DNA of 63,986 bases, the filler included, from Octopus bimaculoides (Eukaryota): the NCBI RefSeq assembly GCF_001194135.2. It is 8 parts of 8 records of this genome, joined end to end, with 100 filler letters (N's around TTAATTAATTAA, not from the genome) between each part and the next. Parts side by side here need not be neighbours in the genome. Positions count along the whole stretch, not along the records: positions 1 to 29,563 come from NC_068992.1; positions 29,664 to 36,196 come from NC_068991.1; positions 36,297 to 41,787 come from NC_069003.1; positions 41,888 to 54,336 come from NC_069000.1; positions 54,437 to 59,845 come from NC_068987.1; positions 59,946 to 61,255 come from NC_068982.1; positions 61,356 to 62,648 come from NW_026387774.1; positions 62,749 to 63,986 come from NC_068998.1. One strand, given 5' to 3'. The notes below the pieces were generated by a model, which worked only from the letters and a program-made list of their open reading frames with translations, ran no database searches and had not been told where the DNA came from. Below are positions 21,052 through 63,871 of the stretch, in pieces. Position numbers and translations under genes: made by a program. Position 1 is the stretch's first letter. Every line of letters starts with the position of its first letter.

Positions 21052-21088
21052 TCTTTCTGTTGAAGAGCGTAGCTCGAAACGTCAAAGA
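21052..21088 (+). ncRNA. Minimal hammerhead-ribozyme-like motif (non-canonical core)
   Basis: TCTTT-CTGTTGA-A-GAG-CGTAG-CTC-GAAAC-GTC-AAAGA. Confidence 0.55.
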
Positions 21089-21176
21089 CTTTCCGTATTC
21101 CCGAGCGTCATACTAATATATACTTTTGTTATTTACACCACCTGTCCTCGTCTGTTGTTATTATTTGTATATTCTC

Positions 21177-21234
<58 letters not shown>

Positions 21235-22779
21235 GTATGAACTATGAAAATTAAGAAAATACATCTGAACAATTATTACATATGAAACCATTAGCTTCAA
21301 CAATACAAAATTTAATATACATCAAATATGTGTGTGTGTGTGTGTATACACAAGTACACATACACATATATATGTACATATATGCATATATATGTGTATA
21401 TATGTGAATGAATATGTATACTCCTGTATATGTATATATATATATGTGTATACATATGTATGCTCATATATGTGTACATATGTATGCACACACACATATA
21501 CTACAGACTCATGCATGCAAATGCCAAAGTACACATTTTGATAAAATGAACCCACTAATATTTTTTTCTTTGTTGTTTTTCCATGATTTTATTTGTGAGG
21601 TGCATAAATTATCTGTTAGAATCAGAAGGAATAGATATATTGGTGATATTTTTGGTCTCCCCTCCTTGATGTGTGAAGTAATTACTTCACATTTTAACGA
21701 AAGATATTTCCTGCTAAAGATATAAATATGCACACACGCACTCACACACACATACACAAACTACACATACACAAACTACACACACACAATGCACACACAC
21801 ACATATAGAGTTATAAATATTGATTTGTATATTATGTGTTTGTGTCAGTATATATATATATATATATATATATATATNNNNNNNNNNNNNNNNNNNNNNN
21901 NNNNNNNNNNNNNNNNNNNNNNNNNNNNNNNNNNNNNNNNNNNNNNNNNNNNNNNNNNNNNNNNNNNNNNNNNNNNNNNNNNNNNNNNNNNNNNNNNNNN
22001 NNNNNNNNNNNNNNNNNNNNNNNNNNNNNNNNNNNNNNNNNNNNNNNNNNNNNNNNNNNNNNNNNNNNNNNNNNNNNNNNNNNNNNNNNNNNNNNNNNNN
22101 NNNNNNNNNNNNNNNNNNNNNNNNNNNNNNNNNNNNNNNNNNNNNNNNNNNNNNNNNNNNNNNNNNNNNNNNNNNNNNNNNNNNNNNNNNNNNNNNNNNN
22201 NNNNNNNNNNNNATATATATATGATATTAGTGTAGTTTGGTGTTTGTGTGTGTATATGTGCATATGTGTATAGGTGTCTGTGTAATATTCTATATCAATA
22301 CCAGAATATTCTTGTTCTTAAAATATACAACAGTTAATAGAATCAATAACAGAAAAATATATTTAAATTACAGTTTCTTTATTTTTCCTTATGTTGCATA
22401 AAATTGAATAATTTCATAGTTTTTTTTTTGGTTTGTTTTAATTTAATATATTACTCATCTACTTTCAACAAATATCATTATTGTCATCATCATAACCATC
22501 ATCATATCCTATTATCATCATAATTATTAATCATTACAAAAATTATCATCAGCAGTACCAACACAAGTATCAGCAACCATCACAATCATCATTATCAACA
22601 TCATTAGTATTTCCACATTAACATCAACCTGAATTCTCCATCAATGCCATCATCTGCCACTGCCAAACCCGCCAACACCATCCATGGAGACACCTCTACT
22701 TATACTAACATCAACATCATTGTTATCAACGTCTTCACAAGAACTATTGTTTTCATTGTAATTATTATTTGATGTGAAT

Positions 22780-23060
22780 CAAGATTAGTCTTATTCTTAG
22801 TAGAATTGAAGTGAGTAGTGGATTACTACCTGTAACTGTAGATATCCACATGATTTCAATAAATCTTCAAATGCTCAAAACACTTCTGATGATATTTCCT
22901 GTTCTGAAGAGACCAACCTTCTTTATAATTTCTACAGGACATTCCATTCCAGCCTCCTTTCACCATTTGTCTATGTCGTTACTCATTGTCCATCATTCAC
23001 CAATTATTGCAGGTACAACATTTACAGATTTCATATTCCAACTCCTTGCAATTTGAATTC
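22780..23060 (-). mobile_element. RLE-type non-LTR C-terminal fragment
   Basis: WNMKSVNVVPAIIG...DIDKW*KEAGMECPVEIIKKVGLFRTGNIIRSVLSI*. Confidence 0.75.
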
Positions 23061-23214
23061 TTAAGGGTTTGAATTTTTTAAGGTTTATTTAAGGATGTTG
23101 AATGAAATGACCCATGTTTCCAGAGGTGAATTATTCAAAACACTGACTGTACTCAAAGTGTGTAGGCTCATAAGATAAAGAGATGAAAGCATGTGTTAAA
23201 AATAAGGCTACTGG

Positions 23215-23260
<46 letters not shown>

Positions 23261-23280
23261 CAACAACAATAATATTAATT

Positions 23281-23625
23281 GGGGAGCATCATGGCTATGT
23301 GTTGAGATAAATTCTTTGAGGTTTGAATAATTTAATAGGTGCTTCGTTCATCATCTTGAAATAAACATTGTTCAGTGACCTTTTGAACTGAATGGACTAG
23401 CCAACCTGAAGAAACTTTTAACTGGGCCCCACCTGCAAGTTCATGCACTGTTTGTATTGATATGAGATCACCATGTCATCACATATGCTTGTGACGCATG
23501 TACCTGGAGTATCCTTTTCAAATGGGTAATCACAGTGGGTATATTGGACTTCGTATATTTGCACCCCAGCATCACTTTAATGGCATACGTTGCTTTCTCA
23601 TTCACTCAATAATAATAATACTAAT
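23281..23625 (+). mobile_element. Older, shorter copy of the (TAA)n-tailed repeat
   Basis: Shares ggggagcatcat...actgggccccacctgc...gagatcaccatgtc...cactcaataataat with 29674-30266; preceded by (TAA)n at about 23215-23257. Confidence 0.75.
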
Positions 23626-24228
23626 AAAATGAAGAAGAATACCTCCCTTAATTTTTAGTTTGTCTTTTAATTATTTTTTTGCACAGATCATAAAGAAATC
23701 TAAATGAAAAACTAAGACATCAAAATATGAAATGAAATTTTAAAATATAGAAAACAAAGATACAGAAACGGAGAAATAAATGCATGCACACATACATAAA
23801 TGCATATACAAGCACACACATATATATGCAAACATATACACATACACACAGATATACATATGCACACATTTACACATGTACATACATACACACATTCCAT
23901 ATAGTTCCTCGGAAAAAATATACATACAGGAACTGGGTATGTATACACATATTCACCCTTTACATATGCATATCTATACACTCACCTACACATACTGATA
24001 CACATGCCCACACAAACACACAAGAATCTAAACATATATTTACACATTCACAAAAGTATACACGTACATATTTACATATATACACACATCCACAAGTACC
24101 AATCTGAAGACTAATGATTAAATTTAAACAATACCTTATCGAATATATTTGCATTCTCAGCTATATTGCCGAATAGAACAATAAATGCAAATATAAATGT
24201 ATGTGTATATATCAACACACACACACAC

Positions 24229-24274
<46 letters not shown>

Positions 24275-25316
24275 AGACACACACACAAATGCACACACAT
24301 GCACACTTATATACACACAATAACAATACTCACTAACCTGTGAACCTTTATATATACACATTCACCAACCTATCTGAACAGGAGAAACAAATTAAACCCA
24401 ATATATACATGCACAAAAGCATATATATGTATACATATGTATACATATAAGCATCTATACCCACACATATATATGTACATGAATTTATATATATATATAC
24501 ATTATATATATATANNNNNNNNNNNNNNNNNNNNNNNNNNNNNNNNNNNNNNNNNNNNNNNNNNNNNNNNNNNNNNNNNNNNNNNNNNNNNNNNNNNNNN
24601 NNNNNNNNNNNNNNNNNNNNNNNNNNNNNNNNNNNNNNNNNNNNNNNNNNNNNNNNNNNTACATACACACACATATAGATATATATATATATATCTATAT
24701 ATATATATACGCCATATATATATGTTTGTATATGTATGCATGTATGTATGTATTTAAAAAAAAGACAGCATATACATATATATTAAGAAAGAATAACAAG
24801 ATAATGTGTATCTTCCAATTATATTAATAAGATACCCGAAAGAAAATATGTATGTGTGTGTGTACTCTGTGTTCAGAGAGGCAACATACCAACATGGATA
24901 TATGCCAATAAACATACATATATACATACGTGCATATATACACACACACACGTTTTTAGTGTTTGTGTGTGTGTCCACAAATTTGTGAGAAATAAACAAA
25001 ACCTGGCCTCAATTTTACCATCATCATCTCAATTGTTTTTGGAAGCAATTTGGATGTTTCAAACTGTGACAGCTTTCCCATACTGCCAGATCTAATTTTG
25101 TATTTTTAAATATGGTAAATGTTTTGGTTATTTTAGAAAAATGCATGAATAGGTAAATATAATAATTGTTCAAGTATTTGATATGCCACAAGGTTTACAG
25201 AAAATCAAACATTCCAAGAGAGTAGAGAAGAAACTCATATGAGAGAACAAGATCTTTGTATTGTAAACATGTTTTCACAAGTACATATGTACACATACAC
25301 TTACACACAAAAGCAG

Positions 25317-25377
<61 letters not shown>

Positions 25378-27261
25378 TCACCTCAGGAGTGAAATTTGAT
25401 AAATGGAAATTGTTGCAAAAATCCATTGTGCATATATGCACGGGTGCACACCTGAACACACACATGCACACACACACACACACACACATATTTACTTCTG
25501 TGAATTTCAGTTCAAAGGCTGTGGCCATGCTGAGGAGGTGAGGGTTGAGATTTGCACATTCCTATATACGCCACATGCAAACCCATCAGTATATACCCAT
25601 GCATATACAAGCATATTCTTCCCCTTACACATACATGTAAATGCACACACAAATATACATATATGTATAGGTATTCATGTACATGAAATTATATACCCAT
25701 GCACACTGGGATGTAGTTTCACAATCCAATGTAAGATCCAGATCCAATATAGGGAAGGTTCTAGGTACTGTGTCTGCATTTGACCCATTCATGTTCTTAA
25801 TTCATATGTAACCCTACATGGGCATCCTGCCTCGGTGCGGGGTTTAGGGTGCATTCCCTAAAATCCTTTTAACACTTGGCACACAGCTGAATGAGATCTT
25901 TAAGAATGAGATCCTTATTATACAAGCATCCCTACCTATGGCATTGCTTGAAATGCTTGTCCACTAAACTAAGTAAGATCCTTTTCACATAGGTCTTGAT
26001 GTTGAGTGAGAAAGATGGCGAAAACCATATATATATTTATNNNNNNNNNNNNNNNNNNNNNNNNNNNNNNNNNNNNNNNNNNNNNNNNNNNNNNNNNNNN
26101 NNNNNNNNNNNNNNNNNNNNNNNNNNNNNNNNNNNNNNNNNNNNNNNTTATATATATGTATATATGAAAAACCACTAAAATAAATTTTACTACACTGCTT
26201 TCAGCTATACTTAAAAGTAGGGAACAACTCTCACATTTGTGGATATAAGGTTTTTAATTAGGGAATTTTAATAAAGATAATAATATAATAAGGATTCTTA
26301 AAATTATGCTTAAGTGCACCAATTACACACACACACACAAATAAATTCAAATACTTTTCAGGGTAATTCTGGCCGTTTTGATTTTTATTAGCATTTTTAT
26401 TTTATACATTGAAGCGAAACAATAATAAATAATTAGATTTAAACAGAAAATTTAAGTTATAGTTTTCTGGAGGAGGTTTTTTATGTGAAGTTTTTGGAAA
26501 CTTGTATTTTAACCGCTCTGGATTTATAATGCAGAGCATTTTCAGTTGTAGCGGTTGTGGCAGTAAGTCTTTGGATTGAACCTAGGAAACTACGATTCCA
26601 TTGTATTCCCAAATAATCGATACCATTTGTTGGTTACAACTCTTGACAAAAGAATGGTTAATTTTCACAGAAGGGGTGCAATTTGAACTCAGAATGCACA
26701 AGGCCAGAACGGATACTGCAATGCATTCCATTCTATGTTCTAACAATTCTACCATTGGCCCCCTGGACTGTTGCTTCTTTTAATTAACTCCAAATCAATG
26801 AATGGCAAAGCTGACCTCAGTGGTATTTGAATTCAGAGTGCAAAATTTCAAACTAAATTTTCCAATACATTTTATCCAATATGCTAATGAATCTGCCTGT
26901 TGGGTTCCTTTATTATAGCTTTACACAGATGAAAATGTACACAACGTCTAAAATCAGACAACCCTAAGCATTGTCACTTAATTTTTACAGAATGAAATAA
27001 TCCATTTTTTGTCAAAGGCAAAATAGACTGGTTCCAGTTAAGTTGAGAAAATACATGAAGAACTTTGTAATATAATGAATGCTATATTATTTTAAGGAAG
27101 GTGTCAAATATTCACTAGGGTCTCAAAGTCTAGAACCAATGCTCTGGCAGATTCTACATCTTAAAGACAACGCACACACATATATGATTACACCACTTCC
27201 TGTAAACACATAGACATACACTCATATTTCTTCACATGCGTTCATGCTGCCCACCTGACAA

Positions 27262-27717
27262 TTGCATGCACACACCAACAGCAGTTCTGTAATACCACAA
27301 ACAAATGCCACCAGAGTAACATTCTCACATAGATCTCAGACATCTACTGTAAAATCAACAGGCACGAACTATATAACTATAACCATATTCAACAGTGCAG
27401 CTATACCAACTCCAGACAACACCCCCACCAAAAAAAAAAAAATGCAAGAAAATTCTTTTTTAGCCATGATGAATCTGGCAAAAGAAATAAAAAAAACTTC
27501 TAGCACTAACAAAGCACCAACCACTGTTACCCCAGTGCACAACCACACACCAATGCTATCATTGACCCACAAACCTAACTCTATAGTAATGCCAAATGTA
27601 CAAGGCCTTTCATACATCATATGTGTAGTAAACCCTATTTCATTTGTTATGTTGTGGAGTATTATAATACAAAGGAAATGTAGCAGCTTCTGTAAATTAG
27701 CTGAGTTGAGTATTTAA
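27262..27717 (+). CDS. Ser/Thr/Pro-rich ORF with hydrophobic C-terminal stretch (possible mucin-like terminal exon)
   Basis: 151-codon open frame ending GLSYIICVVNPISFVMLWSIIIQRK...; the A/C-rich strand composition could itself suppress stop codons. Confidence 0.3.
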   Translation: MHAHTNSSSVIPQTNATRVTFSHRSQTSTVKSTGTNYITITIFNSAAIPTPDNTPTKKKKMQENSFLAMMNLAKEIKKTSSTNKAPTTVTPVHNHTPMLSLTHKPNSIVMPNVQGLSYIICVVNPISFVMLWSIIIQRKCSSFCKLAELSI

Positions 27718-29099
27718 AGAAAATGATGTCATTTCAATATTTCTTTTATATCTCTCTCACTCTCTCTTTATATCAACATCTGTATGTCTGTTTGTCAGTC
27801 TGTCTATCTATTAGTGTGTGTGCATGTGTTTGTGTATGTTTGTGTGCATGTGTGTGTGTCTGTCTATCTGTTTGTCTCTCTCTCTCTCTCTCTCTTTGGA
27901 AGAGTCTGACCATGGCATGTCTTGCTGAGAGAATGACTTTGTTTAATTACTCATAGTAACTGAAGCATGACTAATGAAGATACATAGAAAAACTAATTAC
28001 TGTACACAAGCACATTGACTAATTAATCACTTTACTTATATTTTCAAAGTTGAATAAATATTTTTCCATCTTCCATACTTCAATAATGTACAATGTTTGA
28101 GTTGCCGGAAACACAGACAGTTGGTCACTGTCAACATGTTATATACTTGTATATACTTGTAAATATATCCTCTCTTTTTTTCTTTCTTTCTCTCTCTTCC
28201 TCTCTCCATGTTTGTGTGTGTGTATATCCTTGGTTTGCCGTCACATGATGGTTGTAAACAAGCATCATGATCATGCAAGTGTTGTTGTTGATTATTTCCA
28301 GTCTTCTGTGAGAAACATGTCTGACCTTGGGAAATATTAACTTGCAGAGAAACAGGTGTAGATTGGTGATAGGAAAAGCATCAAGCCATAGAAAATATGT
28401 CTCAACAAAGTCCATCTAACTCATGCAGATATAGAAAATAATTGAGCATTAAATGATGATGGTTGGAAACAAATGACATAAAATACACCTGTAAAACAGA
28501 GTACACATCATTTTAATTATTCCCTAAAAATTTTACTGATGGACTCGCTTCTGTTTCTCTATTTCATCACCATCATCACCATCATTTAACATCTGCTTTC
28601 CAGTTTCCAATTCAGCCCAATTCATGTAACAGGAGACAGTTCCTTCATGCACAAGTTAGGATTGGATAACAGTTGTGAGAGGCTGAGTCACAAATCATTG
28701 AAAGCATTTTATAGAGATGATAGTGAAATCCCATCCTCAATAGCACTGACAGCTTTGACAACTATGCATACATACTCTCTCACACACACACACACACACA
28801 CACAAATATATATATTCACGTACATATTCTTTGATTCCAAACATTTTCAAAAACACATTGGTACATTTCCAAAATTGTCTAAATTTAGAATTCATCAGTC
28901 AATGATTCCTTCACTAGAGAGAGGGAGGAGAGAGGAGGAGGATGGGAGTGAGATAGGGAGGAGTGAAGAAAGTATGTGAATAAAGTCAGGGGAAGAAGGA
29001 AAATAAGCAAGATGAGAAAACTGGGAATAACAAGATCTGAAAAAGATAAACATCAATAGAAGAACATGTAAGAGAAGGAGTTAAATTATAAAATTAGAA

Positions 29100-29181
<82 letters not shown>

Positions 29182-29540: not shown

Positions 29541-29563
29541 ATATATATATATATATATATATA

Positions 29564-29663: not shown

Positions 29664-29673
29664 TAATAATAAT

Positions 29674-30227: not shown

Positions 30228-30266
<39 letters not shown>
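29674..30266 (+). mobile_element. Interspersed repeat flanked by (TAA)n on both sides, probably a retroelement 3' UTR
   Basis: Homologous to 23281-23625; ends ctcactcaat(aat)n; begins after taataataat. Confidence 0.75.
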
Positions 30267-30630
30267 CCGATATAGTAACCTTTTGGAGGGACAAAAAAGA
30301 GTGCCTAATAATCGACGTAACAGTGCCAGGAGATCAACACATCAACATGAAAGAAAGTGAAAAAGTTGATAAATATGGAGACCTGAGAATTGAGATCGCT
30401 AAGATGTGGCAGCTACGAAATTCGAACATAAAGATTATCCCTGTTGTCATCGGAGCATTGGGTTCAACATTGGGTTCAATACCAGACAATCTGAAAAAAC
30501 ATCTGAAAACCTGGAGAGTTCTAAGCACTTGAAAACCATTGGAAGCTAGTGGATACCTAAGGTTGTAGGTAGTAATCCACTAGCCACATAAATAATGCCA
30601 GGAATAAGACCGAGCCTGAGTCAAATAAAA
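30267..30630 (+). mobile_element. 5'-truncated RLE-type non-LTR fragment starting directly after (AAT)n
   Basis: PDIV...CLIIDVTVPGDQHINMKESEKVDKYGDLRIEIAKMWQL...IIPVVIGALGS. Confidence 0.88.
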
Positions 30631-33624: not shown

Positions 33625-34990
33625 TTATTACTATTATTCTTTAACTCAAGTTTTGTTAGAACGCCTGGAGACTTGCATGTGTAACGGGCTTGCTACCTGC
33701 AGCCTACGGTCCCATGCTATCTGTTCTTTTCAACTATCTAATACTGTCCTGATTATTCTGGCCGTACCAAGGAGGCAAACCTTTTGTAACAACTCTACTG
33801 GTACACTATTGCCATTTCCTTTACATTCTTCTTTGAAGCCTTCTGATACTGTTCCCAAGGACTCAGCAATAATTGGTACTATCTTCATCTTCATTTACTA
33901 CAATCACGCTATCTTCTATTTCAGAGTGATGTATGTCTATTTTTACGTCTTCCTTCTTGACTATACATGTGTCAAAGGGGCATGCAACGTCAATTATATA
34001 GTACATGTGGTTCACCTTGTCTACCACCGCTAGGTCCGGCTTGTTGTGCTGAAGCACCCGGCCTGTTTGGATTGGCAAATATCACTAGACATGCAGGTCC
34101 CCGACTCCGCCGCTCTTTGTGGTTTGTGCCCATATGAAGCTTTGTCTCTCTCTGGCCTCCACTTTTCACAAAGTTTCCAATGTAGCACTTTCGCTATCTC
34201 ATCATGTCGCCACAACTTATATTGATTTTGGCAAGTCCAGAGTATTCGTTTATCATATGAGCAATGGTTTTGTTAACTCTATTATAGATTCGGTGCAATG
34301 GAGACAGTTGCTCATTCCTACAGTTAACCCTTCCATTTGTGGCCAAACCCTGGCCTTGCGCTGCCATTATTGTGCTCTCGGTCTCTTTTCAGTCTTACCT
34401 TCTTCAACCAGTCTCACGTACGTTTACCAACAACTTCATTTGTGGCTACATGGAATTGATTGTGTAGTCTCTTGTTGCGTAGTACTTCTTCATGTCCTTC
34501 CTGTACTTCTTGTTTTGCTCTTTTCTTTTCCTGATTTCAAATTGCCCTTATCTCTAACTGCCCGTAGCAAGGTTTCTTCACTTAGGGATAGATACCGCAG
34601 CAGGTTCCCAAGTTCAATATGTACACAGTCTTCCGCACTTCTCAGTCCCCTTCCTCCATTTGCTCTCTTCATGTATATACGATCAATGTCTGCACATTGA
34701 TGATATGGGCTCCATGCGTCGTTAGGAGCTTTCTTGTCTTTCTGTCCAACTCCTTTACTTCATCCTCAGTCCACTTCAGAATTCCAATTCCATACCAAAC
34801 CACTGCGACTGCGCGCGAGTTTATTGCCGAAATTATGTTCCTGACATTCAACGTTGAATCCAATGCTTTTCGCCATCGCTGCAGATACGCTTTTGTTGTC
34901 TTTTCCTTCATATCATTATGCTTAATTCCATCTGCCTCAAATATCCCCAGGTATTTATATACTGACATCACAATCATCATTAACATCGTT
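33625..34990 (-). mobile_element. RLE-type non-LTR retrotransposon (R4/Dong-like), degenerate 3' part
   Basis: YKYLGIFEADGIKH, LDRKTRKLLT, LYMKRANGGRGL, HDEIAKVLHWKLC, KPDLAVVDK..YIIDVACPFD, LLQKVCLLGTARIIR. Confidence 0.92.
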
Positions 34991-35212: not shown

Positions 35213-36140
35213 TATATCCGAACCGGTGCTATAAAAACAAAACTACAGCACGTACCAATTTGGCATTTAATCTCCTTCAAAGTAGTCCCCTTCGAAAGCC
35301 ACACACTTAGTCCAGCGCTGTTTCCATTGATGGAAGCATTCCTGGAACTCGTTTTCTGGGATAATCAGCAGCTGCCTCGTCGTATTCACTTTGATTTCCT
35401 CGAAAGAATTGAAATCTTCCTTTCAAGCTGGATTTGATTTTTGGAAAGAAGAAAAAGTCGGAAGGGGCGAGATCTGGGGATTACGATAGCTGTCGTACCT
35501 GGGGAATGCTGTGCCTAGCTAAAATATGCTGCGCAAGCTGGGCAGGTGCATTGTCATGGTGCAATTGCTACTCACCGGACGCATGCAACTGTGGCCTTTT
35601 CCGACGAATAACTTCCCCTAAAGCCCGCAAAACGTCACGGTAGTACTTCTTGTTTACTGTCTGACCAGGTGGAACATACTTATGATGAACAATCTCTTGT
35701 AGTCGAAGAAAACGGTCAACTCATTCCTGCTTTCTTCGGTCTCGGAGAGGTTGGGGGTCTTCCAATAAGAAGACTTAGCCTTTGCTTCAGGGTCATAGCC
35801 ATAGACCCACAATTCATCATCCGTTATGACTGTTTTCAAAGAGTTTTCATCGTTCTCGACAGAATCAAGGAGATCTGGTGCAACTGAAACCCGAGTGAGT
35901 TTTTGGTCAACTGAAAGCAGTTTTGGCACAAACTTGGCAGACACGTGTCTAATACTCAAGTCTTCAGTGATAATGAACAGAACTGAACCGTAACTAATCT
36001 GCTCATCCTCTGATAATTCACGGATGGTGATTCGACGATTTTCCGCTCAAAGCTGCACGCACATCTGCAATGTTTTTCTCAGTTCTGCTGGTTGCGGGTT
36101 TCCCAGAACGTTCGTCACTATCGACATTTTTTCGGCCATT
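35213..36140 (-). mobile_element. Degenerate mariner (DD34D-type) transposase
   Basis: SAKFVPKLL, VITDDELWVYGYDPE, LHHDNAPA, SPDLAPSDFFFFPK, C-terminal KCVAFEGDYFEGD*; multiple stops and frameshifts. Confidence 0.92.
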
Positions 36141-38886: not shown

Positions 38887-39790
38887 NNNNNNNNNNNNNN
38901 NNNNNNNNNNNNNNNNNNNNNNNNNNNNNNNNNNNNNNNNNNNNNNNNNNNNNNNNNNNNNNNNNNNNNNNNNNNNNNNNNNNNNNNNNNNNNNNNNNNN
39001 NNNNNNNNNNNNNNNNNNNNNNNNNNNNNNNNNNNNNNNNNNNNNNNNNNNNNNNNNNNNNNNNNNNNNNNNNNNNNNNNNNNNNNNNNNNNNNNNNNNN
39101 NNNNNNNNNNNNNNNNNNNNNNNNNNNNNNNNNNNNNNNNNNNNNNNNNNNNNNNNNNNNNNNNNNNNNNNNNNNNNNNNNNNNNNNNNNNNNNNNNNNN
39201 NNNNNNNNNNNNNNNNNNNNNNNNNNNNNNNNNNNNNNNNNNNNNNNNNNNNNNNNNNNNNNNNNNNNNNNNNNNNNNNNNNNNNNNNNNNNNNNNNNNN
39301 NNNNNNNNNNNNNNNNNNNNNNNNNNNNNNNNNNNNNNNNNNNNNNNNNNNNNNNNNNNNNNNNNNNNNNNNNNNNNNNNNNNNNNNNNNNNNNNNNNNN
39401 NNNNNNNNNNNNNNNNNNNNNNNNNNNNNNNNNNNNNNNNNNNNNNNNNNNNNNNNNNNNNNNNNNNNNNNNNNNNNNNNNNNNNNNNNNNNNNNNNNNN
39501 NNNNNNNNNNNNNNNNNNNNNNNNNNNNNNNNNNNNNNNNNNNNNNNNNNNNNNNNNNNNNNNNNNNNNNNNNNNNNNNNNNNNNNNNNNNNNNNNNNNN
39601 NNNNNNNNNNNNNNNNNNNNNNNNNNNNNNNNNNNNNNNNNNNNNNNNNNNNNNNNNTATATATATATATAATAAACTGATATATACACAAACAGGGAGA
39701 ATTCACAAAAAACAACAACAAAGGATGAAGACATGTGGTGTAGACAACAACAAACAGATGTATTAGTTTCACGCTCGGCAGTGAAAACGT

Positions 39791-39826
39791 CTTTAACGTT
39801 TCGAGCCTACGCTCTTCCACAGAAAG
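39791..39826 (-). ncRNA. Minimal hammerhead-ribozyme-like motif (non-canonical core)
   Basis: Reverse complement: CTTT-CTGTGGA-A-GAGC-GTAG-GCTC-GAAAC-GTT-AAAG. Confidence 0.55.
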
Positions 39827-40316
39827 GAACACAAAATGAAACAAGGAGAGAAAATAAAGAATTGAAACCACGATCTCGCGATCGTGAGGTTTGCATGCTA
39901 AACCATTAAGCCATTCACCCTTACATATAATATATATAAAACTATAATTATTCATATTAATGATCTAACGGGGATTCTTATTGTTATAATTGATAATCAA
40001 AGGTAGAGAAAATATTTATATCCTCAGGTGAATGAAAAAACAATTGTCCTAAATAATGATGCTAAGAATGGAATGGGATAGTTTTTAATTTAAAGTTTTC
40101 GTAATATAAAAGTATGTAACCCGTACTTTACACTTAAAGACCGCAAGTCCAGCATCCCAAATTCAGGCTGGTCAACCTATCTAAGAGGTTGATAAGCATA
40201 GTTAGAAAGCATATTCTTAGAATTAGTTCAAGTAAGCTGAGGCACTTCAAGAAATGCATTGAGTCAAGAGTCAATACAAACACATATGCATGTGTGTGTG
40301 TATATANNNNNNNNNN

Positions 40317-40969: not shown

Positions 40970-41701
40970 ATAGATTTATCGATATACGCGCTGCTATGTT
41001 ATATGCCACGGAGGATTCTATTATACTAACTCTCGTTTTGTAAGAGGTACTGTATACATACTCAAAGAATGTGTACGTACATACACCCTTACACACCAAT
41101 ATATAATTATATACACGCGCGCATGTACACACACACACATACACACATGCACACATGCAAACATATTCACACATTGATGTATATATATGTATGGGTGCGT
41201 GTATTGTGTGCGCGCGTCTACATGTGCACACGTCACATATGATACGCGTTTGCAACGTACAATTTGGTCGTGAGCAAATACGAAACAAACCGGAAGAGCG
41301 TCATCCCTCCGAAATGTAATGTAAACAAGCTATCATAACAGGAAAACATTCTAAGGGAGATCAACAGTTATATAGAAATTACGTTCTGCTCTGATGAACA
41401 GCCTGATGATACGAAACTGCTGGCGAATGGAATGCCGGACGCTGAACTATAATTTATACAGTAAATATTTACTCTATGTAAGTATTGAGTTCTCTTTTCT
41501 TTTGTTCGTTGTGTGACCTCGTTTCTGATGTCGCCCACGCACTACTAGTAATGGATATATGTGTGTATATGGATATATTTAGATTTATATCTATATGTAT
41601 ATGTCTTTCTCTCCATGTATGTGTGTGTGTGTGTCAGTGTGATTTTGTATGTATATGCTGGTGCGACCATGTGTGTTTGCGCGTTTGTGTGTGTATGTGC
41701 G

Positions 41702-44230: not shown

Positions 44231-44624
44231 ATTTTTTATTATTTATTCGTCTTCTACACATTTTTTTACACCTATAAGATTGAATTTTAGGGGGTTTTTT
44301 GGGTGACTGGGAGTTAAAATAAACATTAATCCATAGGTTAAAGTAAACATTAACTATATATGTATAGGCCGGTTTATGGGATTACCTTAAGTTTCCCATC
44401 CATAAAGGGTTTAGCTTTATGGCATATTATCAGATTCCAAAACCTATTGGATCAAGATGTCTTAAAAATATGGAGAACAAAATACCTCACTACTCAAAGG
44501 TTACAATGGTGATTTCTCCCTTGGCTATCAACTTCTGGCTCTGCCACAATCTTATGGGCTCTAAAAGGCTTGCAGGATTCTCCTAAGATGTAAACATGGC
44601 CTGAAAATCTCCATTCTGGAGTTA

Positions 44625-44800
44625 GGAAATCCTTTAGAATTATCGCCTGTTCAGCTATGCATAATTTGCAATATTTTGTCCCATTGATGTAGGGGTCTGG
44701 GTACTTGAGGATTTTCCATGAGATCAAGTATGGAATTCCATTGTCTCTCAGTTGCCAGTCATGTTATGTATCTCGTTTCTGGAACTCCGGTGGGCATATG
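44625..44800 (-). mobile_element. Penelope-like element, GIY-YIG endonuclease C-terminal fragment
   Basis: WQLRDNGIPYLISWKILKYPDPYINGTKYCKLCIAEQAIILK. Confidence 0.75.
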
Positions 44801-48415: not shown

Positions 48416-48549
48416 CATGGTCGGGGGAGGGGGTTATACAGTGATGATGTTTTGTTCACTTTCATAAACCTACCATGTTAAAATAGAATAGTATAGGAAA
48501 GAAATTATTTAAGTTTTCAAAGGGCTAGAATTATCCATCTCAGTAGAGG

Positions 48550-48740
48550 AAGAGCATACCATAGTTAATATCTTGGATATTAATTTAGATTTGAGTATGA
48601 GAGTATTCCAACAATACCATAAACCTAATGACAACCTCAGGTGTATCAACTTGAACAGTAATTATCCTAAAAGTATAACCAATTCCATAGACAATAACAT
48701 CTCTATTTGCATTCAGTTATTAACCAAATTGAACACTGTT
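48550..48740 (+). mobile_element. Penelope-like element, RT thumb-region fragment
   Basis: IVNILDINLDLSMRVFQQYHKPNDNLRCINLNSNYPKSITNSI resembles PLE VNFLDV.L.L...Y..YRKPN....YI...SNHP..I. Confidence 0.7.
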
Positions 48741-49361
48741 AACATTTTTGAAGAGGACTGGTGCCTAGCTACATTTTGGCATAAACAAAATGAGATTTGA
48801 TCCAGTAGAAAAAGGTTTACATAAAAATTTGAGGCAACGTTATAGGAGAGTAAGTAACACCACCAATCAAGTTTAGATCTAAATAACATTTTTATTTTAA
48901 AAGCAAAATATATTTATCTTAGCTTCAGTGATAGAAGAGAGCATGAAGAATTTCATAGTTTTGTTTCCATGCAACAAAAATTTGTATAAAAAGTTGTGAG
49001 GTAAAATATCATGAAAAAAATATAAGTAAAGCAAAAAATTGGATTTAAGTATAATTAACTTTTTTATTTTAAAAACAAACTATATTTTAATTAAGCTTAA
49101 ATGATAGAGCTCAATTCAAGGAATTTCATGGTATCAATCTCATGCAATGAAGTTTTAAAAGAAAAATGTTATGAGTGTTTGTTTCTCAAATTTAAGGGTG
49201 CTAATATAGTTTTATCCTTTTTTATGAATATAGTCCTCTGAGGGGACTTTTAATATATGTCGCTGGCGTCATTGAGATAAAAAATTAACAACAATGCTAA
49301 CTAACACATTTGACACATTATTAATTAGTATAATAGCATAGCCTGGCAAAAATGTGGATTA

Positions 49362-55353: not shown

Positions 55354-55411
<58 letters not shown>

Positions 55412-56030
55412 NNNNNNNNNNNNNNNNNNNNNNNNNNNNNNNNNNNNNNNNNNNNNNNNNNNNNNNNNNNNNNNNNNNNNNNNNNNNNNNNNNNNNNNNN
55501 NNNNNNNNNNNNNNNNNNNNNNNNNNNNNNNNNNNNNNNNNNNNNNNNNNNNNNNNNNNNNNNNNNNNNNNNNNNNNNNNNNNNNNNNNNNNNNNNNNNN
55601 NNNNNNNNNNNNNNNNNNNNNNNNNNNNNNNNNNNNNNNNNNNNNNNNNNNNNNNNNNNNNNNNNNNNNNNNNNNNNNNNNNNNNNNNNNNNNNNNNNNN
55701 NNNNNNNNNNNNNNNNNNNNNNNNNNNNNNNNNNNNNNNNNNNNNNNNNNNNNNNNNNNNNNNNNNNNNNNNNNNNNNNNNNNNNNNNNNNNNNNNNNNN
55801 NNNNNATATGTATGTATGTGTGTGTTTGTGGGGGTGAGTATGTAGGTATATATATTGATGTATGTATGCATATATGTATATATATATATGTTCACGTGCA
55901 TTTCTCTCTCTTTCTCTCTACGTATGTATGTATATATATATATATATATATGGCACAACAAATTTTTAAAGCACCAAGATGAGGTAAAAAGGAAACAAGG
56001 TTGACGCTCGGGAAAATTGGAAGAAGTCGT

Positions 56031-56063
56031 GAATGTTTCGAGCAGACGCTCTTCTACGGAAAA
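56031..56063 (-). ncRNA. Degenerate hammerhead-like motif
   Basis: Reverse complement: CCGTAGA-A-GAGC-GTCT-GCTC-GAAAC-ATTC. Confidence 0.45.
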
Positions 56064-56694
56064 GATAAATGAGGAGAGGAAAAAACAATAGGGAGAAAAA
56101 GAACGAAGGAATCTCAATGAGACGGTCCGGTTGTGACTGTCTTGTTTTTTGCATGTATCAGACGACAATGACTAATGTAGTTCTATATGATTTAAGGGAA
56201 TGATGGGAAGAGATAAGATATTTGATAAATATCTGTTCTCATTAGACCATATAACCGCAATCTTATGTCTATCAGTTGTCCGCCTAGAAACATAAATTTA
56301 TAGCAAGTGGTATGAGTGTCTTCATCGCCAATGTATTTACATCATCCAAATTATCATGTCTTGTGTCTGTCAGTTAATAACGTTGTACATCTATCAAATA
56401 ACTGAAATAAAGATCACTATTGTGTTTCTTTAATATGTCGTCAGAATACATCTGTTCATACAATTTAAATCATTGTGTAAACCTTGTCCGAATACTCGAC
56501 ATTAAGAACAGCTTTTATTTTCCAATAAAACTGGTGTAGCTGATATTATTAGAGTTATTCCCTTGTTTGTTTTGTGTTAGATTTTTATCACTTTAGTAAA
56601 AGGCAAAACTTCCTCTGGGGAGTTTTGTCTTTCACTAAAGTGATAGTTACGAATGATTGAAGATTTTCAACTGACTATATTACAAATGTGACTC

Positions 56695-57116
56695 TTATAT
56701 TCTTTTCTACTCTAGGCACAACACCCGACATTTTTTGTGGGAAGGGGCCAGTCGATTAGATCAACCCCAGCATGCAAATGATTTTTAATTTATCGACCTC
56801 GAAAGGATGAAACACGAAGTCGATCTTGGCGGAATTTGAACTCAGAACGTAAAGATAGATGAAATACCGCTAAGCATTTCGCCCGGCGTGCTAACGTTTC
56901 CTATTTCTTTATTGCCCACAAGGGGCTAAACATAGAGGGGACAAACAAGGACAGATTATATCGACCCCAGTGCGTAACTGGTACTTATTTAATCGACGCC
57001 GAAAGGATGAAAAGCAAAGTCTACCTCGGTGGAATTTGAACTCAGAACGTAGCGGCAGACGAAATACCGCTAAGCATTTCACCCGGCGTGCTAATGTTTC
57101 TGCCAGCTCGCCGCCT
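56695..57116 (-). mobile_element. Two abutting SINE family B copies
   Basis: Copies at about 56695-56900 and 56901-57116 with different tails; further remnant at about 57240-57340. Confidence 0.88.
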
Positions 57117-57349
57117 TTATGTGACTCTTATATTGTATGTGAATTTCGTACGATCTACGCTTCCCTATTGCGTTTCTCCTCAGCCTTATTGCTGCATTTC
57201 ATAATCAACGTCACTACTTTCAGTCTATACCTATATATTTTATAGACCCTGAAAGAATGAAAGGCAAAGTCAACCGGAAGAAATGCCGCTAGATAATTTG
57301 TCCGGCGCAGTGATGATTTTACCTGCTCACAAACTTAGCGGTAATATTA

Positions 57350-58140
57350 AGGGGAAAGAAATACCTGTAAGAACTGCACAAAAATCAAATTCAAGCTAAC
57401 ATGGAGAAACAGAAATATCACCATGTAAAGTAATATGAGATTCCGTCCTGCACCGATGCTCTCCATCTCCTTGTGTGCATAAGAGAGATGGAATCTTACG
57501 GCAGAGATTGTTGTTGGCACTCCGTCGCTTACGACGTCGAGGGTTCCAGTTGATCTGATCAACGGAACAGCCTGCTCGTGAAATTAACGAGCAAGTGGCT
57601 GAGCACTCCACAGACACGTGTACCCTTAACGTAGTTCTCGGGGATATTCAGCGTGACACAGAGTGTGACAAGACTGGCCCTTTGAATTACAGGCACAGCA
57701 GAAACAGGAAGTAAGAGAGAGTTGTGGTGAAAGAGTGCAGCAGGGTTCGCCATCATCCCCTGCCGGAACCTGGTGGATCTTTTAGGTGTTTTCGCTCAAT
57801 AAACACTCACAACGCCCGGTCTGGGAATCGAAACCGCGATCCTCTGACCGCGAGTCCGCTGTCCTAACCACTGGGCCATTGCGCCTCCACACGGCAGAGA
57901 TACAAAGAAAGATATTGGAAATGATATGCTGCTGTAGCATCTTAGGCATCTCTTATTTGTACTATATTACTAATAAGCGGGATCACAAAACCATCAAACG
58001 TCTCAGAAATCCCATGAAGGCCTTTTCGCAGCAGAGAAGAAAAGAAATCTGAGAAAATATGGTCACGTGGCAAGATGCAATGGCTCATGCAAAAGGTCGT
58101 TCTTTGAGGAACAATTGAGGGCGAAGAAAGGGAGGCTAAC
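57350..58140 (+). mobile_element. Degenerate RTE LINE RT C-terminal region interrupted by a SINE
   Basis: KLTWRNRNIT...LTAEIQRKI...CSILGISYL...; SINE at 57509-57890 inserted with TSD inside it. Confidence 0.7.
57509..57890 (-). mobile_element. Full-length SINE, family A
   Basis: 11-bp TSD ACGGCAGAGAT (57498-57508, 57891-57901). Confidence 0.93.
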
Positions 58141-58836
58141 GTTTCTGATCCTGAAGGTCACGGTATAATTCTAAAAAAGCTATGGATACAAAACCTTTTA
58201 TTTACTATTGTGTGTGTACGTTTGTATTTGTCCTCAAACCAGCATCGTTTGACGATCAGTGTTGGTTTGTTTTCGCTCCCGCAACTTAGAGGTTCAGCAA
58301 AAGTGACCGACAGAATAAGCGCCTGATTTTTAAAAAAAGACAAATACCGGGTTCGATTTCTTTAACGAAAACTCTTGATGGCTGTACCCCAGAATGGCCA
58401 CAGTCCTACGACTGGAACAAATAAAAAGAAAAATAATATTTCTGAGGAATCAAAGCATAACGACAACAACAAAATACTGGAAGCAAAAACAGCAGAATAT
58501 TTTCCGAAGAAAAGCATGAGAAGTCAAATGCGCCTCGTTGGAATGTATTATTAATAATAAAAAATGGATTGTGAAGGAATATCGATTTTCCAAAACAAGA
58601 TGCAATAGCAAAAAGCTGAAAACCGGTGATATAAGAATCAGATTGGACTAGATTGGAAGTGATATTGAGTGGAATTTTTTTTACGCTTCGTTAAAGATTA
58701 CTTATAAAACAAAGATTGTTCGTATATGCATGGCTGTGTGGTTAGAAGCTCGCTTCGCAACCAGGTGGCTTGTGGTTAAGTTCCACTGCGCAGCATATTG
58801 GCTAAAGTGTCCTCCGCTAGTGGACACTTTATATAT

Positions 58837-59003
58837 AGGCGCAGGAGTGTCTGTGTATTAAGTAGCTTGCTTATCAACTACATGGCTCCGGGTTCAGTCC
58901 CACTGCGTGGCAATTTGGGCAAGTGTCTTCTGTTATAGCCTCGAGCCGACCAAAGCTTTGTGAGTGGATTTGGTAGACGAAAACTGAAAGAAGCCGGTCG
59001 TAT
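58837..59003 (+). mobile_element. SINE family C head, preceded by an older head at about 58725-58820
   Basis: Homologous to 11563-11725. Confidence 0.85.
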
Positions 59004-59077
59004 ATATATATATATATATATATNNNNNNNNNNNNNNNNNNNNNNNNNNNNNNNNNNNNNNNNNNNNNNNNNNNNNN

Positions 59078-59140
<63 letters not shown>
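59078..59140 (+). repeat. (AAT)n microsatellite
   Basis: Direct reading. Confidence 0.97.
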
Positions 59141-59141
<1 letters not shown>

Positions 59142-59529
59142 AAATGATATATGAGCATATGCATGTATACATACATATATGTACATGCCTACATCTAGAT
59201 GTATATATAGATGCATATCCGGGTACAGGACGTCAAAAAAACGTGGACAAAAAAGGAACGGGAACATAAACAAAGCACAAAAAAAAACGGACTTTTTTAC
59301 GGACAACAGAATGAACACATAGGGAAGCAGACAAGCCACAATGAGGCAGAATGCGCTCTTAGAATAGCTCTTCCCGTGAAGTGGATTAACCTACTAAGCG
59401 GAGGATTCCAAAGTAGCAAACAAAAACCATAGATAGATAGATAGAGTGCGTATCAGAAATATAAAGTTAATGCACAAACATTATATATATGACAGACAAA
59501 CAGACAAACAGAGAGATAGATAGATAAAT

Positions 59530-59815
59530 GTATGAGTTCGTTTCTCGGACCGGGCTGTGTGTTGTGTTCTTCAGCAAGACACTTTATTTCACGTTGCTCC
59601 GGTTTACTCAGCTGTAGAAATGAGTTGCAACGTCACAGGTGCCAAGCTGTATCAGCCTTTACCTTTCCTTCGGAAAACGTCGATAGCGTGGAGAGGAGAT
59701 GCTGGTATGGGCGACTGCTGGCCTTCCATAAATAACCTTATCCGGACTTGTGTCTCAGAGGGAAACTTTTTAGATGCAGTCCCAGGATCATTCGTAACCG
59801 ATGCGAGTCTTTACT
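59530..59815 (+). mobile_element. SINE-like repeat with CORE-like segment (family E)
   Basis: cttcagcaagacactttatttcacgttgctcc...actcagctgtagaaatgagt; central motif shared with about 12260-12295. Confidence 0.65.
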
Positions 59816-59845
59816 ATACTTTACTAATCGATACTATACTATATA

Positions 59846-59945
59846 NNNNNNNNNNNNNNNNNNNNNNNNNNNNNNNNNNNNNNNNNNNNTTAATTAATTA
59901 ANNNNNNNNNNNNNNNNNNNNNNNNNNNNNNNNNNNNNNNNNNNN
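59846..59945. other. Artificial scaffold-joining spacer
   Basis: 44N-TTAATTAATTAA(59890-59901)-44N. Confidence 0.95.
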
Positions 59946-60109
59946 TCTTCTTCTTCACAACGAGCTGGAACCCACAAGAATAAACACGATAGACAGAGAC
60001 AGGCAAAAACAAGGAAAATGCCCCTTGTATTTGAATACTATGCAAATATTCTTTTAAAAGATTTTTCATTTAATTTTTCCAAAATTTAATTGTTTTCCAT
60101 ACTTAGAGT

Positions 60110-60420
60110 TGAAAATGTCTCAATGACTGAAACTGACAACAAGGTATGCTATAAGAAAATTCGATGGATATGATAGGTTAGCGTGGGAGGTTAAACAGTT
60201 GTGATCGATGAAAAAATGTGGTAGTACCAATAATTGTAGGTGCCCTGGCAACAGTGAGTAAAAGTCTTGAGAAGTATATGGAGCAAATAAAAGCTGAAAT
60301 AAAGGTGGAGCACTTGGAAAAATTAGCATTGCTTGGAAATGCTCGAATACTCCGGATGGTACTCGAAAAATAAGAGATGTTACCTTAGTTCACTGGTGGT
60401 GAAGTGCTGGCACTGTAACA
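60110..60420 (+). mobile_element. RLE-type non-LTR C-terminal fragment
   Basis: VVPIIVGALATVSKSLEKYMEQIKAEIKVEHLEKLALLGNARILRMVLEK*. Confidence 0.85.
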
Positions 60421-60429
60421 TGAAAGACC

Positions 60430-61255
60430 GAAAACATTTCACTCTATTCTGAAAGAGAGGAAAAAAATTCGCCACTGATCTCTTAGATACCTACCAGATT
60501 GATCAGGTTGAAGGAAATGCGCCAACTGCTGCTGCAAAGAAAATAAAATTAATTGCAAAGACAAAAACACATGAAAAATTAGCTAGCAGATGGGAACAGA
60601 AACCTCTGCATGGCAAGTATGTGGCTCGTAGCAAACAAACTGATGTCGACCAGAAACACACGCATCAATGGTTACGAATCTCAGGGCTAAAAGCACAGTG
60701 AAGGTTTCATATTAGCTGCTCAAGACCAAAGCTTATTCACCCGGAACTACCAAGCCAATGTGACAAAAAATTGAGCTGACCCACAATGCCGATTCTGTAG
60801 CGATGAGATTGAAACTATAGACCACCTAATTTCACATTGAAGAGTCTTAGCACCTGTAGAATATAAAGCAAGACATGACAGAGTCGGACAGTATTTACAT
60901 TATAAAATCAAAACCGCTGACAAATGGTATAAACACCATCCTGAAGCTGTGACTGAGGAAGAAAATGTGTCGATTCTCTGGGACTTCCCCGTACATACCG
61001 ACAAAACTATAAAAGCTGATAAACCGGATATTATTATAAAAGATCAGACAAAATATGTGTCTATTAATTGACATGAGTATTCCTTGCCATCACAATATAG
61101 CGGCGAAACAATTTGACAAGATCAGTAAATATAAAGACTTGCTAATAGAAATTGAAAAAATGTGGCATCTCTAGGAATGATAAAAAAAGTTACTGAAACC
61201 TATTTGAAAATGCTACCAGGACTACCATCCCTACAGGAAGTGCAAAAAATCGTGT
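60430..61255 (+). mobile_element. RLE-type non-LTR fragment (second subfamily), zinc knuckle plus RLE
   Basis: WEQKPLHGKY, EGFILAAQDQSL, CRFCSDEIETIDHLI, RHDRVGQYLH, ILWDFPVHTDKTIKADKPDIIIKD. Confidence 0.92.
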
Positions 61256-61355
61256 NNNNNNNNNNNNNNNNNNNNNNNNNNNNNNNNNNNNNNNNNNNNT
61301 TAATTAATTAANNNNNNNNNNNNNNNNNNNNNNNNNNNNNNNNNNNNNNNNNNNN
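61256..61355. other. Artificial scaffold-joining spacer
   Basis: 44N-TTAATTAATTAA(61300-61311)-44N. Confidence 0.95.
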
Positions 61356-62129
61356 TATATATATATATATATATATATATTTGTGAGTGTGTGTTTGCGC
61401 ACACAAAGGGTGCCATTTTTACTACTTACATCAGACCAAATGAGGGTTTAAAACTAAAATGTTATCTTTTCATTCCCAGTGAAACATTACATTCAGTAGC
61501 TGAACACATGTGAAAATGTGGAATGAAGAAACATATTTCTTATTTGTAGTGACAGGAAGAGCATCCCACTGTAAAAGTACTGCCTCAAATAAGAACCTGT
61601 CTAATTTATGCCAGCATAGACAAATGGACATAAAATGAACAATGCAAAGATGAGAGAGGCAGCTAACAACAAGAATAGATGTTTTGTACTCCTTTATTAA
61701 GTAAGTCCTGTTCTAATTTGAAATCCTGCTGAAATTATCTTATCTTCCATTTTTCACCAAGATGAATAAAATATATATCAGTATGTACTTAAATCTATTC
61801 AAGTATACTTATTTTTTACAAAATATTAGTCTTATGCCTAATCAAAATATATCATTTTAAATAAATATGTCCTTTTATGTCGATGAAAGAAAAAGAAAAT
61901 CAACTTGAGTATTGGAGCAGAAAGATACTGGTCTCTGTTACAAACAGTTTCCATTTAGCAAATTCACTCACAAGGAAATGAAAGCACTAGAAGACATTTG
62001 CCCAAACTGCTACATAATGGGACTGAACTGAGAAGCTGTGGTTGCAAAACAAGCTTTCTAGCCACACAGCAGGGTTTTATATATATATATATGTAAATAT
62101 GCTTATGCCAACATTAATTCAAAACTTAC

Positions 62130-62297
62130 CTATAATTCTTGAAGATTCAGTATTTGCGTTGTTAGAAGATGTACATAATTTCTTGTGAAGAGGCCATGCA
62201 GATTTTTGACAAGATTTTGAGCAGTATTTTGCATTTTTGCATTGGCTACATCTCTTTAAATGTGCATTAAAATTACCACAGCTGTCACATATTCCAA
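62130..62297 (-). CDS. Internal exon encoding a complete MYND-type zinc finger (host gene unidentified)
   Basis: Manual translation: (V)[55 protein letters not shown], matching the MYND pattern CxxC...CxxC...YCS..CQ..W..HK..C. Strong donor G|GTAAGT at 62130; weaker AAG acceptor; 168 nt, symmetric phase 1. Confidence 0.88.
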
Positions 62298-62648
62298 CTT
62301 CATAATCAAATTATTAAATACATGTAAATAAAAGAAATATATCAACATATAAATTGTATTTAAAAAACAAAAAAGTTGATTTATAAACAGGAAAACAAAG
62401 TCAAAATATTTACATAGAAAATGGAAGCGTAGCTACATATTTCGCACAGCCTACTTGGCATCAGTAAGTCGACAGTGACTTATTTGACATCAGGTGTTTC
62501 ACTTGGTCTCTCTTTGTTTATGTGTGTGAGCAGAGTACTTTTTATGCATGTGAGGAGAGGAGCAATTAATACATTTTAATCTCTTTCTCATTCTGTTTAT
62601 CTGTATATGTACATTTCTGTGCAAGCATGGATGTGTGTGTGTGTGTGT

Positions 62649-62748
62649 NNNNNNNNNNNNNNNNNNNNNNNNNNNNNNNNNNNNNNNNNNNNTTAATTAA
62701 TTAANNNNNNNNNNNNNNNNNNNNNNNNNNNNNNNNNNNNNNNNNNNN
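62649..62748. other. Artificial scaffold-joining spacer
   Basis: 44N-TTAATTAATTAA(62693-62704)-44N. Confidence 0.95.
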
Positions 62749-62934
62749 TATATATATATATGCATGCTTGTGTACATATATTATATAGTGCGGTTGTATG
62801 TCGTTGGTTGGTTACCATGAAAGGAAATGATTTGACAATTTCTTTTGTCCGTCATTTTAAACCCAAAACAATCATATCAGATGTTGATAATTCTTTATGT
62901 TGTTTTTAATGCGGTCCGCGCTATTGATTTGTCT

Positions 62935-63180
62935 ATAAATCATTATCATTGTCGTCATCGTCATCGGCGTCATCGCCATCAGCGTCATCGTGGACGTCAC
63001 CATCATCACCTTCGTAATCCTCATCATCAGCCCCGTCCGTCATTTCATCGTCGTCGTTATCGTCATCGGCGTCGACTCCGTATTCATCATCGTCGTCGTC
63101 GTCGTCGTAGTAGTAGTAGTAGTAGTAGTAGCAGCACCACCACCACCACCAGTTGCAGCAGCACTACCAGCAGCGGCACC
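62935..63180 (+). repeat. Mixed (CAT/CGT/TAG/CAC)n trinucleotide tract
   Basis: Direct reading; source of the poly-His/Arg/Val ORFs. Confidence 0.92.
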
Positions 63181-63494
63181 ACAGCTGTTAAACACCAAGT
63201 TTTATCTGTAGATGTATAACAATGAGAATAAATATCAATGGCGGTGTTTCGTAATGCAGCCATTTAAATATACAAGTATAGTTATATTAGGGGTCGCCTA
63301 ACGAAATCCCTCGTCCCTGCAAGTTATTAATGGGTTTGATGTTCGAACCGCTGGGTATATTTTCTGCAAATGAAATAGCAGAATACTATTGTGTGTATGG
63401 GATATTATTATGTGTATGAAAGACAAAGCTAATCTCGGCGGAATTTGAACTCAGAACGTAAAGACAGACGAAATACCAGCTCCACACCTTAAGT

Positions 63495-63615
63495 TATTTG
63501 ATATTCGACTCAACATATGACCCTCTCCGATTCACACATTTATTGCAGTGGTCCTTCAGCTTTTCTAAGTCCTGTAAAATAAATCGGAAGGTTGAGCCTC
63601 CAGCCAGGCCTTTTG
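63495..63615 (-). mobile_element. Mariner transposase C-terminal fragment
   Basis: KAWLEAQPS...LEKLKDHCNKCVNRRGSYVE (frameshifted) matches the mariner ..RW.KC....G.YVE tail. Confidence 0.6.
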
Positions 63616-63839
63616 AAATATCTATAAATTTAGCAACTGTATATAAAGCTATATAAGAAGACGTAAGCAAACTCACCCCTGTTGTCAAGTGAAGGGGCCC
63701 ACACAGACAAAAAGCCACACAAACGCACACATGTATGTGTATATATACACATACATCTTCCGGTCTTTTCATAATGTAACCTCGTGGGCATCGGTACCAT
63801 TTTCCTCTTTCTCCGTTCTTCCATTCTCCGAACTTTCCA

Positions 63840-63871
63840 TCTTTCCGACGAAGGGCTACGCCCGAAACGTC
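63840..63871 (+). ncRNA. Minimal hammerhead-ribozyme-like motif
   Basis: TCTTT-CCGACGA-A-GGGC-TAC-GCCC-GAAAC-GTC. Confidence 0.6.

Follow-up and report, generated by a model that had tools for sequence, protein, structure and literature searches.

Hammerhead-derived motifs with an A6U core at the 3′ ends of a high-copy Penelope-like element in Octopus bimaculoides

The stretch of Octopus bimaculoides DNA considered here (the window; 63,986 nucleotides, filler included, from RefSeq assembly GCF_001194135.2) consists of eight stretches joined end to end, of which the first, third, fifth and eighth each carry one short motif resembling a minimal hammerhead ribozyme. These four motifs are the 3′ ends of 5′-truncated Penelope-like elements (PLEs) inserted in (TA)n tracts. 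It is reasonably probable that they are hammerhead-derived sequences belonging to the 3′ terminal repeat of a PLE with many copies, in whose dominant branch a U at core position 6 (A6U) has been fixed, with the fold likely kept and with self-cleavage weakened and probably dispensable for copying.

The motifs lie where the sequence-only reading had placed them, with C3 at 21057 (+), 39822 (−), 56059 (−) and 63845 (+). Their supposed location on four scaffolds holds as far as four separate stretches are concerned, although a genome location was obtained for the 56059 copy alone (G000:C7:82407948). The copy at 21053..21087 (+) has stem I CUUU/AAAG, core CUGUUGA (A6U), stem II GAGC/GCUC and GAAAC-GU-C17, with a predicted cut after 21083; that at 39791..39826 (−) has the same stem I, core CUGUGGA (A6U) and U17 at 39795; that at 56028..56063 (−) has core CCGUAGA (U4C and A6U), U17 at 56032, no stem I and an A at 16.2, so that it lacks the CG palindrome at 15.2-16.2 of the other three; and that at 63841..63875 (+) has core CCGACGA (U4C), stem II GGGC/GCCC and C17 at 63871. 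In all four, a bulged A comes after the core, then a stem II of 4 bp and GAAAC-(G/A)-U-H, and G12, A13, A14, A15.1, U16.1 and H17 are intact. The proportions of U6 (three of four copies), C4 (two of four) and CUUU/AAAG (two of four), the GAGCGU block, which begins 19–23 nt past position 17, and the (TA)n tract about 80–125 nt past it all agree with the earlier description. The compensatory stems claimed there have to be reduced: covariation in stem II is present but comprises one pair and one event (10.2-11.2, A-U to G-C), and stem I has its 4 bp in two copies, whereas it is lost in 56059 and forms just two of four pairs in 63845. A pattern derived from the four copies matched exactly these four and nothing in 100 shuffles, which, since the pattern was fitted to them, shows relatedness only; a profile from genomic copies found the same four, nothing else in the window and no match in the reversed sequence. 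No hammerhead family from Rfam appeared among the 150 of 272 window matches listed, or among 75 rows for nine loci that included canonical-core copies.

The prevalence of A6U was established with one genome pattern in which positions 4 and 6 were varied and whose reversed controls gave 0 or 1 matches. It returned 9,374 genomic matches with U4U6 (CUGU) cores, 134 with C4U6, 1,696 with C4A6 and 3,092 with any A6 core, leaving 1,396 for U4A6 (CUGA) by subtraction, so that the A6U branch has about seven times as many copies as CUGA. Within the family with a GAGCGUA loop, U6 was present in 7,014 matches and another base in 282 (mostly C among the 100 listed). Moreover, the conserved downstream block, CCGAGCGU-N-UAAUA (21100..21117, +, in the first copy), when searched alone, gave 15,334 genomic matches against 21 in the reversed control and provided a sample chosen independently of the core: the first 95 places listed corresponded to 90 distinct copies, of which 11 were without a core (truncated or unrelated) and 79 were scored. 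Position 6 was U in 62 of these, A in 15 and C in 2, while C3, A13 and A14 were kept in all 79, G8 and A9 each in 75, G5 in 72 and G12 in 71; the palindrome retained its C in 73 and its G in 75, all four bases occurred at N7 and at position 17, and no subfamily lacking another core base was seen in this sample. Thus, from the sampled copies together with the genomic counts, A6U is the state of the source elements, inherited rather than produced by decay. It is carried by very young subfamilies, and the canonical core (C3 U4 G5 A6 N7 G8 A9) is confined to sister branches. In the same sample, G5 was changed to A in 7 of 79 copies, across subfamilies, other non-CpG guanines being affected in 1–3, and this position is possibly a mutation hotspot.

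The four window copies, initially treated as a single family, belong to three branches with differing core changes, and 63845 keeps A6. Flanks alone, stripped of the motif, were used for clustering and for a tree (136 of 140 copies). A 96/94 branch of this tree parts 50 A6 copies from a side with all 74 U6 copies, which also holds 12 scattered non-U6 tips, most of them gathered by the non-U6 search. The A6 side contains a canonical branch (CUGAAGA, stem I GUUU/AAAC), a branch with G17 in 8/8 copies and C4 branches, one of which, with stem II GGGC/GCCC and a weak stem I, includes the 63845 copy. Among the tightest clusters are one of U6 copies (17 copies, median 4% from the majority) and one of C4 copies (11 copies, median 4.5%). 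The first corresponds to the young U6 subfamily, whose 5′-truncated 3′ end occupies 20990..21178 (+) and whose fixed 3′ end adjoins the (TA)n target tract (21179..21222, +); the second corresponds to the young C4/A6 subfamily, represented by the 5′-truncated 3′ end at 63756..63969 (+) and its (TA)n tract (63970..63986, +). An older U6 subfamily has left the 5′-truncated 3′ end at 39694..39861 (−), and a branch of this element superfamily that is old and low in copy number is represented by the 3′ end at 55952..56128 (−), with five similar copies among 10 matches. The latter, the 56059 copy, is too diverged for the flank tree and has flanks in common with the deepest tips on the U6 side, L125 and L138. 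A private origin for its combination of C4 and U6 was dropped, since its small branch shows C4 in 4/5 copies and U or C at position 6. In the young U6 subfamily the motif is flanked by a direct repeat, UCCGUAUUC (21045-21053 and 21092-21100), between whose units it has been wholly deleted in 2 of 100 listed young-lineage matches. Contigs of another organism hold 85–92% of 13 sampled words from the 21057 copy, and this subfamily is therefore probably shared with a relative.

Evidence on the host element comes from the ends of the copies and from the proteins linked to them. Copies have a fixed 3′ end followed by (TA)n and variable 5′ ends, left by random truncation and often joined to (TA)n too, and a TA run was found 60–200 nt downstream in 78/111 copies (plus 17 with an assembly gap) as against 381/2,000 control windows. 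A GIY-YIG peptide beside one copy was used as query (150 scored matches of 8,710 candidates), and the motif lay 346–1296 nt downstream on the same strand in 12 of the 30 best endonuclease loci, and in none on the opposite strand. A reverse transcriptase (RT) with GTRMG and YIDD motifs precedes GIY-YIG, and in several loci the order runs RT, CSRPRCRTC linker, GIY-YIG, long 3′ untranslated region (UTR), motif, fixed end and (TA)n; RT, endonuclease, UTR, motif and (TA)n were found in L072, L074, L076, L085 and L090, and the CX4CxxC linker, as CSRPRCRTC before GIY-YIG, in L036 and its relatives. Pfam matches to RVT_1 (E 0.005) and GIY-YIG (E 0.0035) were both weaker than the curated cut-offs. In the young lineage of 21057, longer copies reach the endonuclease across assembly gaps in 2/30 loci (L263 and L270), and a C4 copy, L255, sister of 63845, has a related, 63%-identical RT 2.4 kb upstream, also across a gap. 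Judged by domain order and linker, which define Neptune and Nematis elements in PMC8557442, the element appears to be of the Neptune/Nematis type; the Neptune label follows the domain order and characteristic motifs. A Naiad element would need its endonuclease N-terminal to the RT, which here comes first, and a non-LTR (long terminal repeat) retrozyme, made of tandem non-coding units with no open reading frame (ORF), was rejected on copies that are dispersed and ORF-linked. Thus, of the proposal that these are ends of a cephalopod PLE or retrozyme-like family tied to (TA)n, PLE ends at (TA)n were retained and the retrozyme part was discarded, with dispersed copies linked to RT and endonuclease. 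The RT-like and endonuclease-like fragments of the window itself, which had been offered as a possible parent, gave no tblastn match at E<1e-3 to the motif-linked proteins. As to a full-length unit between pseudo-LTRs, the loci showed only partial head-to-tail pairs, and long copies are interrupted by assembly gaps. Such pairs of element ends, 122–280 nt apart, occur in G000:C1 (L018, L019, L101/L102 and 16067523/16067645) and are an arrangement able to supply two motifs per transcript.

As for the fold, 92.8% of the cells of 17 chosen rows were paired, compared with 19–43% in slid controls. In stem II 98.5% of the cells are paired, with a bulged base after A9 and closure by G10.1-C11.1 in 17/17 rows. 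Stem I, which in this class of hammerhead is 3–5 bp long, has 85% of cells paired and one compensated pair in these rows, and the 63845 branch has a weak one. Changes on both sides are seen in two pairs, namely the outer pair of stem I (C-G, G-C or A-U by branch) and 10.2-11.2 (A-U or G-C). Across branches C3, G5, G8, A9 and G12 to A15.1 are fixed, and N7 and H17 vary. The genomic copies bear out what had been supposed from the window, namely that the layout is that of a minimal type I hammerhead and that the family has fixed a core variant. The active dimer was not obtained by free two-strand folding, nor the hammerhead monomer with energy models; in U6U7 copies UGUU can pair with AACG, giving a plain hairpin, and in C4 copies GACG can pair with CGUC. 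Some other accounts of the core were rejected: a shifted register (UUGAAGA) would need U7, yet N7 varies, and a stop-codon explanation, by which U4C and A6U would both remove a UGA, meets U7 subfamilies that keep an in-frame UGA at positions 7–9. The downstream GAGCG block could pair with stem II or with upstream sequence (GCUCG/CGAGC), but in the GGGC/GCCC branch such pairing is uncompensated.

Cleavage was sought in RNA and in genomic truncations. Three RNA-seq runs from a single study, sampled at about 6% each, placed 2,601–3,268 reads on a young U6 copy, in both orientations about equally, and no alternative base was listed at position 6. Depth was unbroken over the predicted cut site (855/973 and then 876/1003 in one run), with no pile-up of ends there, and in a longer copy read ends piled up solely at the 3′ end of the element. 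The RNA 5′ ends at the GUH site that the sequence-only reading had suggested looking for were absent from the three runs. These reads are probably passengers in host transcripts, and fragmented libraries, passenger reads and the fact that the PAc hammerhead of Anolis cleaves without leaving such ends together make the RNA-end test a weak one. Truncations of the young lineage were counted by hand (100 of 127 matches listed, nine set aside for indels or N, 91 left) and showed no peak at the cut site: among the matches listed, 9/91 (11 with two ambiguous cases) started at +1 and 25 at +5, and the remaining ones spread from −1 to +9, tracking TA microhomology. In the control count, made on the canonical branch, register shifts obscured any signal, so that it is uninformative, and the truncation test, like that on RNA ends, is a weak one. 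A role of the pyrimidine tract and the core AG as a splice acceptor was also dropped, as no GT..AG joint into the motif occurred among the joints and loose ends listed, with 430 nt upstream covered.

It is likely, as a prediction, that U6 RNA cuts itself weakly or not at all, though the element kept spreading. Under this reading, the endonuclease would nick (TA)n and reverse transcription would begin some 100 nt away on the 3′ side of the motif, with most of the RNA uncut, which would explain why every short copy retains the motif. With a stem III of one pair, folding would require either that two motifs dimerise through the ACGU palindrome or that the element's protein assist. Selection could hold the junction, the stems and the catalytic guanines and tolerate changes that slow or stop the cut; the fold would then be under some selection and the cutting rate not, so that branches could go on multiplying after A6U, U4C, G17 or a weak stem I had been fixed. 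Relaxation of this kind is seen in the sister branches, with G17 throughout one, C4 in others and a weak stem I in a young one. Several points weigh against this reading. The covariation amounts to two pairs and some three events and is not a significance test. Among 10 cluster majorities, 9/11 core positions are invariant as against 19/123 flank columns, a contrast inflated by copies mostly selected with a core pattern and by flanks of slippage-prone pyrimidine tracts. The 79-copy sample comes from one chromosome arm. Efficient assisted catalysis would account just as well for the retention of C3, G5, G8 and G12 in branches with 63% RT identity. A measured cleavage rate for A6U was not found in the available text of the literature searched. 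Finally, the flanks were linked to RT and GIY-YIG as had been proposed, but a full-length element was not recovered among the copies examined.

The U6 core could instead be a working ribozyme, with A6U offset by dimerisation, by the element's protein or by a metal (Mn2+, for instance) and with tandem transcripts processed by cleavage. The directly catalytic positions are all kept, active hammerheads likewise vary at N7 and H17, head-to-tail pairs occur at 122–280 nt, and the available parts of the respective papers report rescue of A6C by Mn2+ (PMC7151607) and protein-assisted cleavage of PAc (PMC11167929). Nevertheless, neither read ends nor truncations mark the site, sister branches multiplied with G17 or a weak stem I, and U6U7 copies can form the plain hairpin of UGUU on AACG, all of which makes this alternative unlikely. 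The same low credence is given to a more specific idea, in which U6 would be an active hammerhead gated by protein or metal, the change at a supposedly invariant position having been kept for tens of subfamily generations because it holds the RNA as an uncut hairpin until the element's protein refolds it. Somewhat less likely still, the motif could be a dead relic, what is conserved being an overlapping DNA or RNA signal (a promoter, a protein-binding site or a priming signal) or plain inheritance. The GAGCGU block, conserved as well as the core and without covariation, several independent core violations and the unseen cleavage signal fit this idea, whereas the hammerhead fold itself is indicated by compensated pairs in both stems and by free variation just at N7, loop II and H17. 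It is very improbable, and already largely refuted, that the copies are a non-autonomous retrozyme or short interspersed nuclear element borrowing the Penelope enzyme; most copies are indeed shorter than 300 nt and without an ORF, but their 5′ ends are variable, longer ones extend into endonuclease and RT, and they are dispersed rather than arrayed.

The window has some other features. A different hammerhead-like stretch at 41386-41440 (+), not matched by the family profile, has two CUGAUGA boxes, GAAAC and a small GGC/GCC hairpin. Two decayed frames, at 44494-44763 (−) and 48513-48800 (+), appear from their motifs to resemble the endonuclease end and the RT thumb of a PLE of another lineage; they gave no match to the motif-linked proteins (tblastn, E<1e-3) and no relevant Pfam hit. 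Frames at 30266-30532 (+), 34669-34989 (−) and 35654-36046 (−) are also decayed and presumably resemble proteins of non-LTR retrotransposons and mariner.

In the following comparisons, each paper is represented by its available text. The octopus motifs share with the minimal type I hammerheads of metazoan PLEs (Cervera and de la Peña 2014, PMC4209133) a U-rich 5′ flank, a short stem I, a bulged base after A9, G10.1-C11.1, GAAA-CG-UH, no real stem III and mostly single, dispersed copies. Their layout equals the supplementary consensus of that work except at positions 4 and 6, and the CUGAAGA branch fits it fully; however, the published examples have CUGA or UUGA, which the descriptor required, whereas in the octopus the dominant branch has fixed U6, and others have fixed C4 or G17. 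Minimal PLE hammerheads are described in the literature as inactive as monomers and slow as dimers. The host resembles Neptune/Nematis PLEs (Craig et al. 2021, PMC8557442) in its RT, CX2-5CxxC linker and C-terminal GIY-YIG, in a bias towards microsatellites, there attributed to the linker, and in a hammerhead in the terminal repeat, but canonical hammerheads are reported there as universal outside Naiad/Chlamys, and the octopus copies are mostly non-canonical. The same two core positions are changed in A6C of phage Bcep176 and U4C of a viroid, natural cores that cleave slowly, their activity being low though detectable (PMC3088659, PMC7151607); these are rare single cases in full-size ribozymes, whereas the octopus A6U occurs in a minimal motif with more than 9,000 copies. 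PAc, from a Poseidon element of Anolis (PMC11167929), is similar in its terminal-repeat hammerhead, AT-rich targets, a fixed end from internal priming and no RNA-seq ends at the cut site; its cleavage takes place only with the element's protein, and mutants insert normally in vitro. It differs in its clade, in conserved C3 and G8, in demonstrated protein-assisted cleavage and in an ORF beginning inside the motif.

Since the U6 copies depart from the core that defines the class, the motif is a variant derived from the minimal PLE hammerhead and not a proven member. The class and the context are known, and what is new is that A6U is fixed and that a set of sister branches exists; no natural A6U hammerhead and no study of octopus PLE hammerheads was found in the available text of the literature searched, a search that excluded the main variant survey (Lünse et al. 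2017), which may contain such cores. That PLE hammerheads may merely ride along has been suggested (PMC8557442), and cleavage was dispensable in vitro for PAc (PMC11167929), again in the text available. Searches requiring CUGANGA overlook most of these motifs in this genome, which offers a ready comparison, one element having sister branches whose cores are canonical, A6U, U4C and G17.

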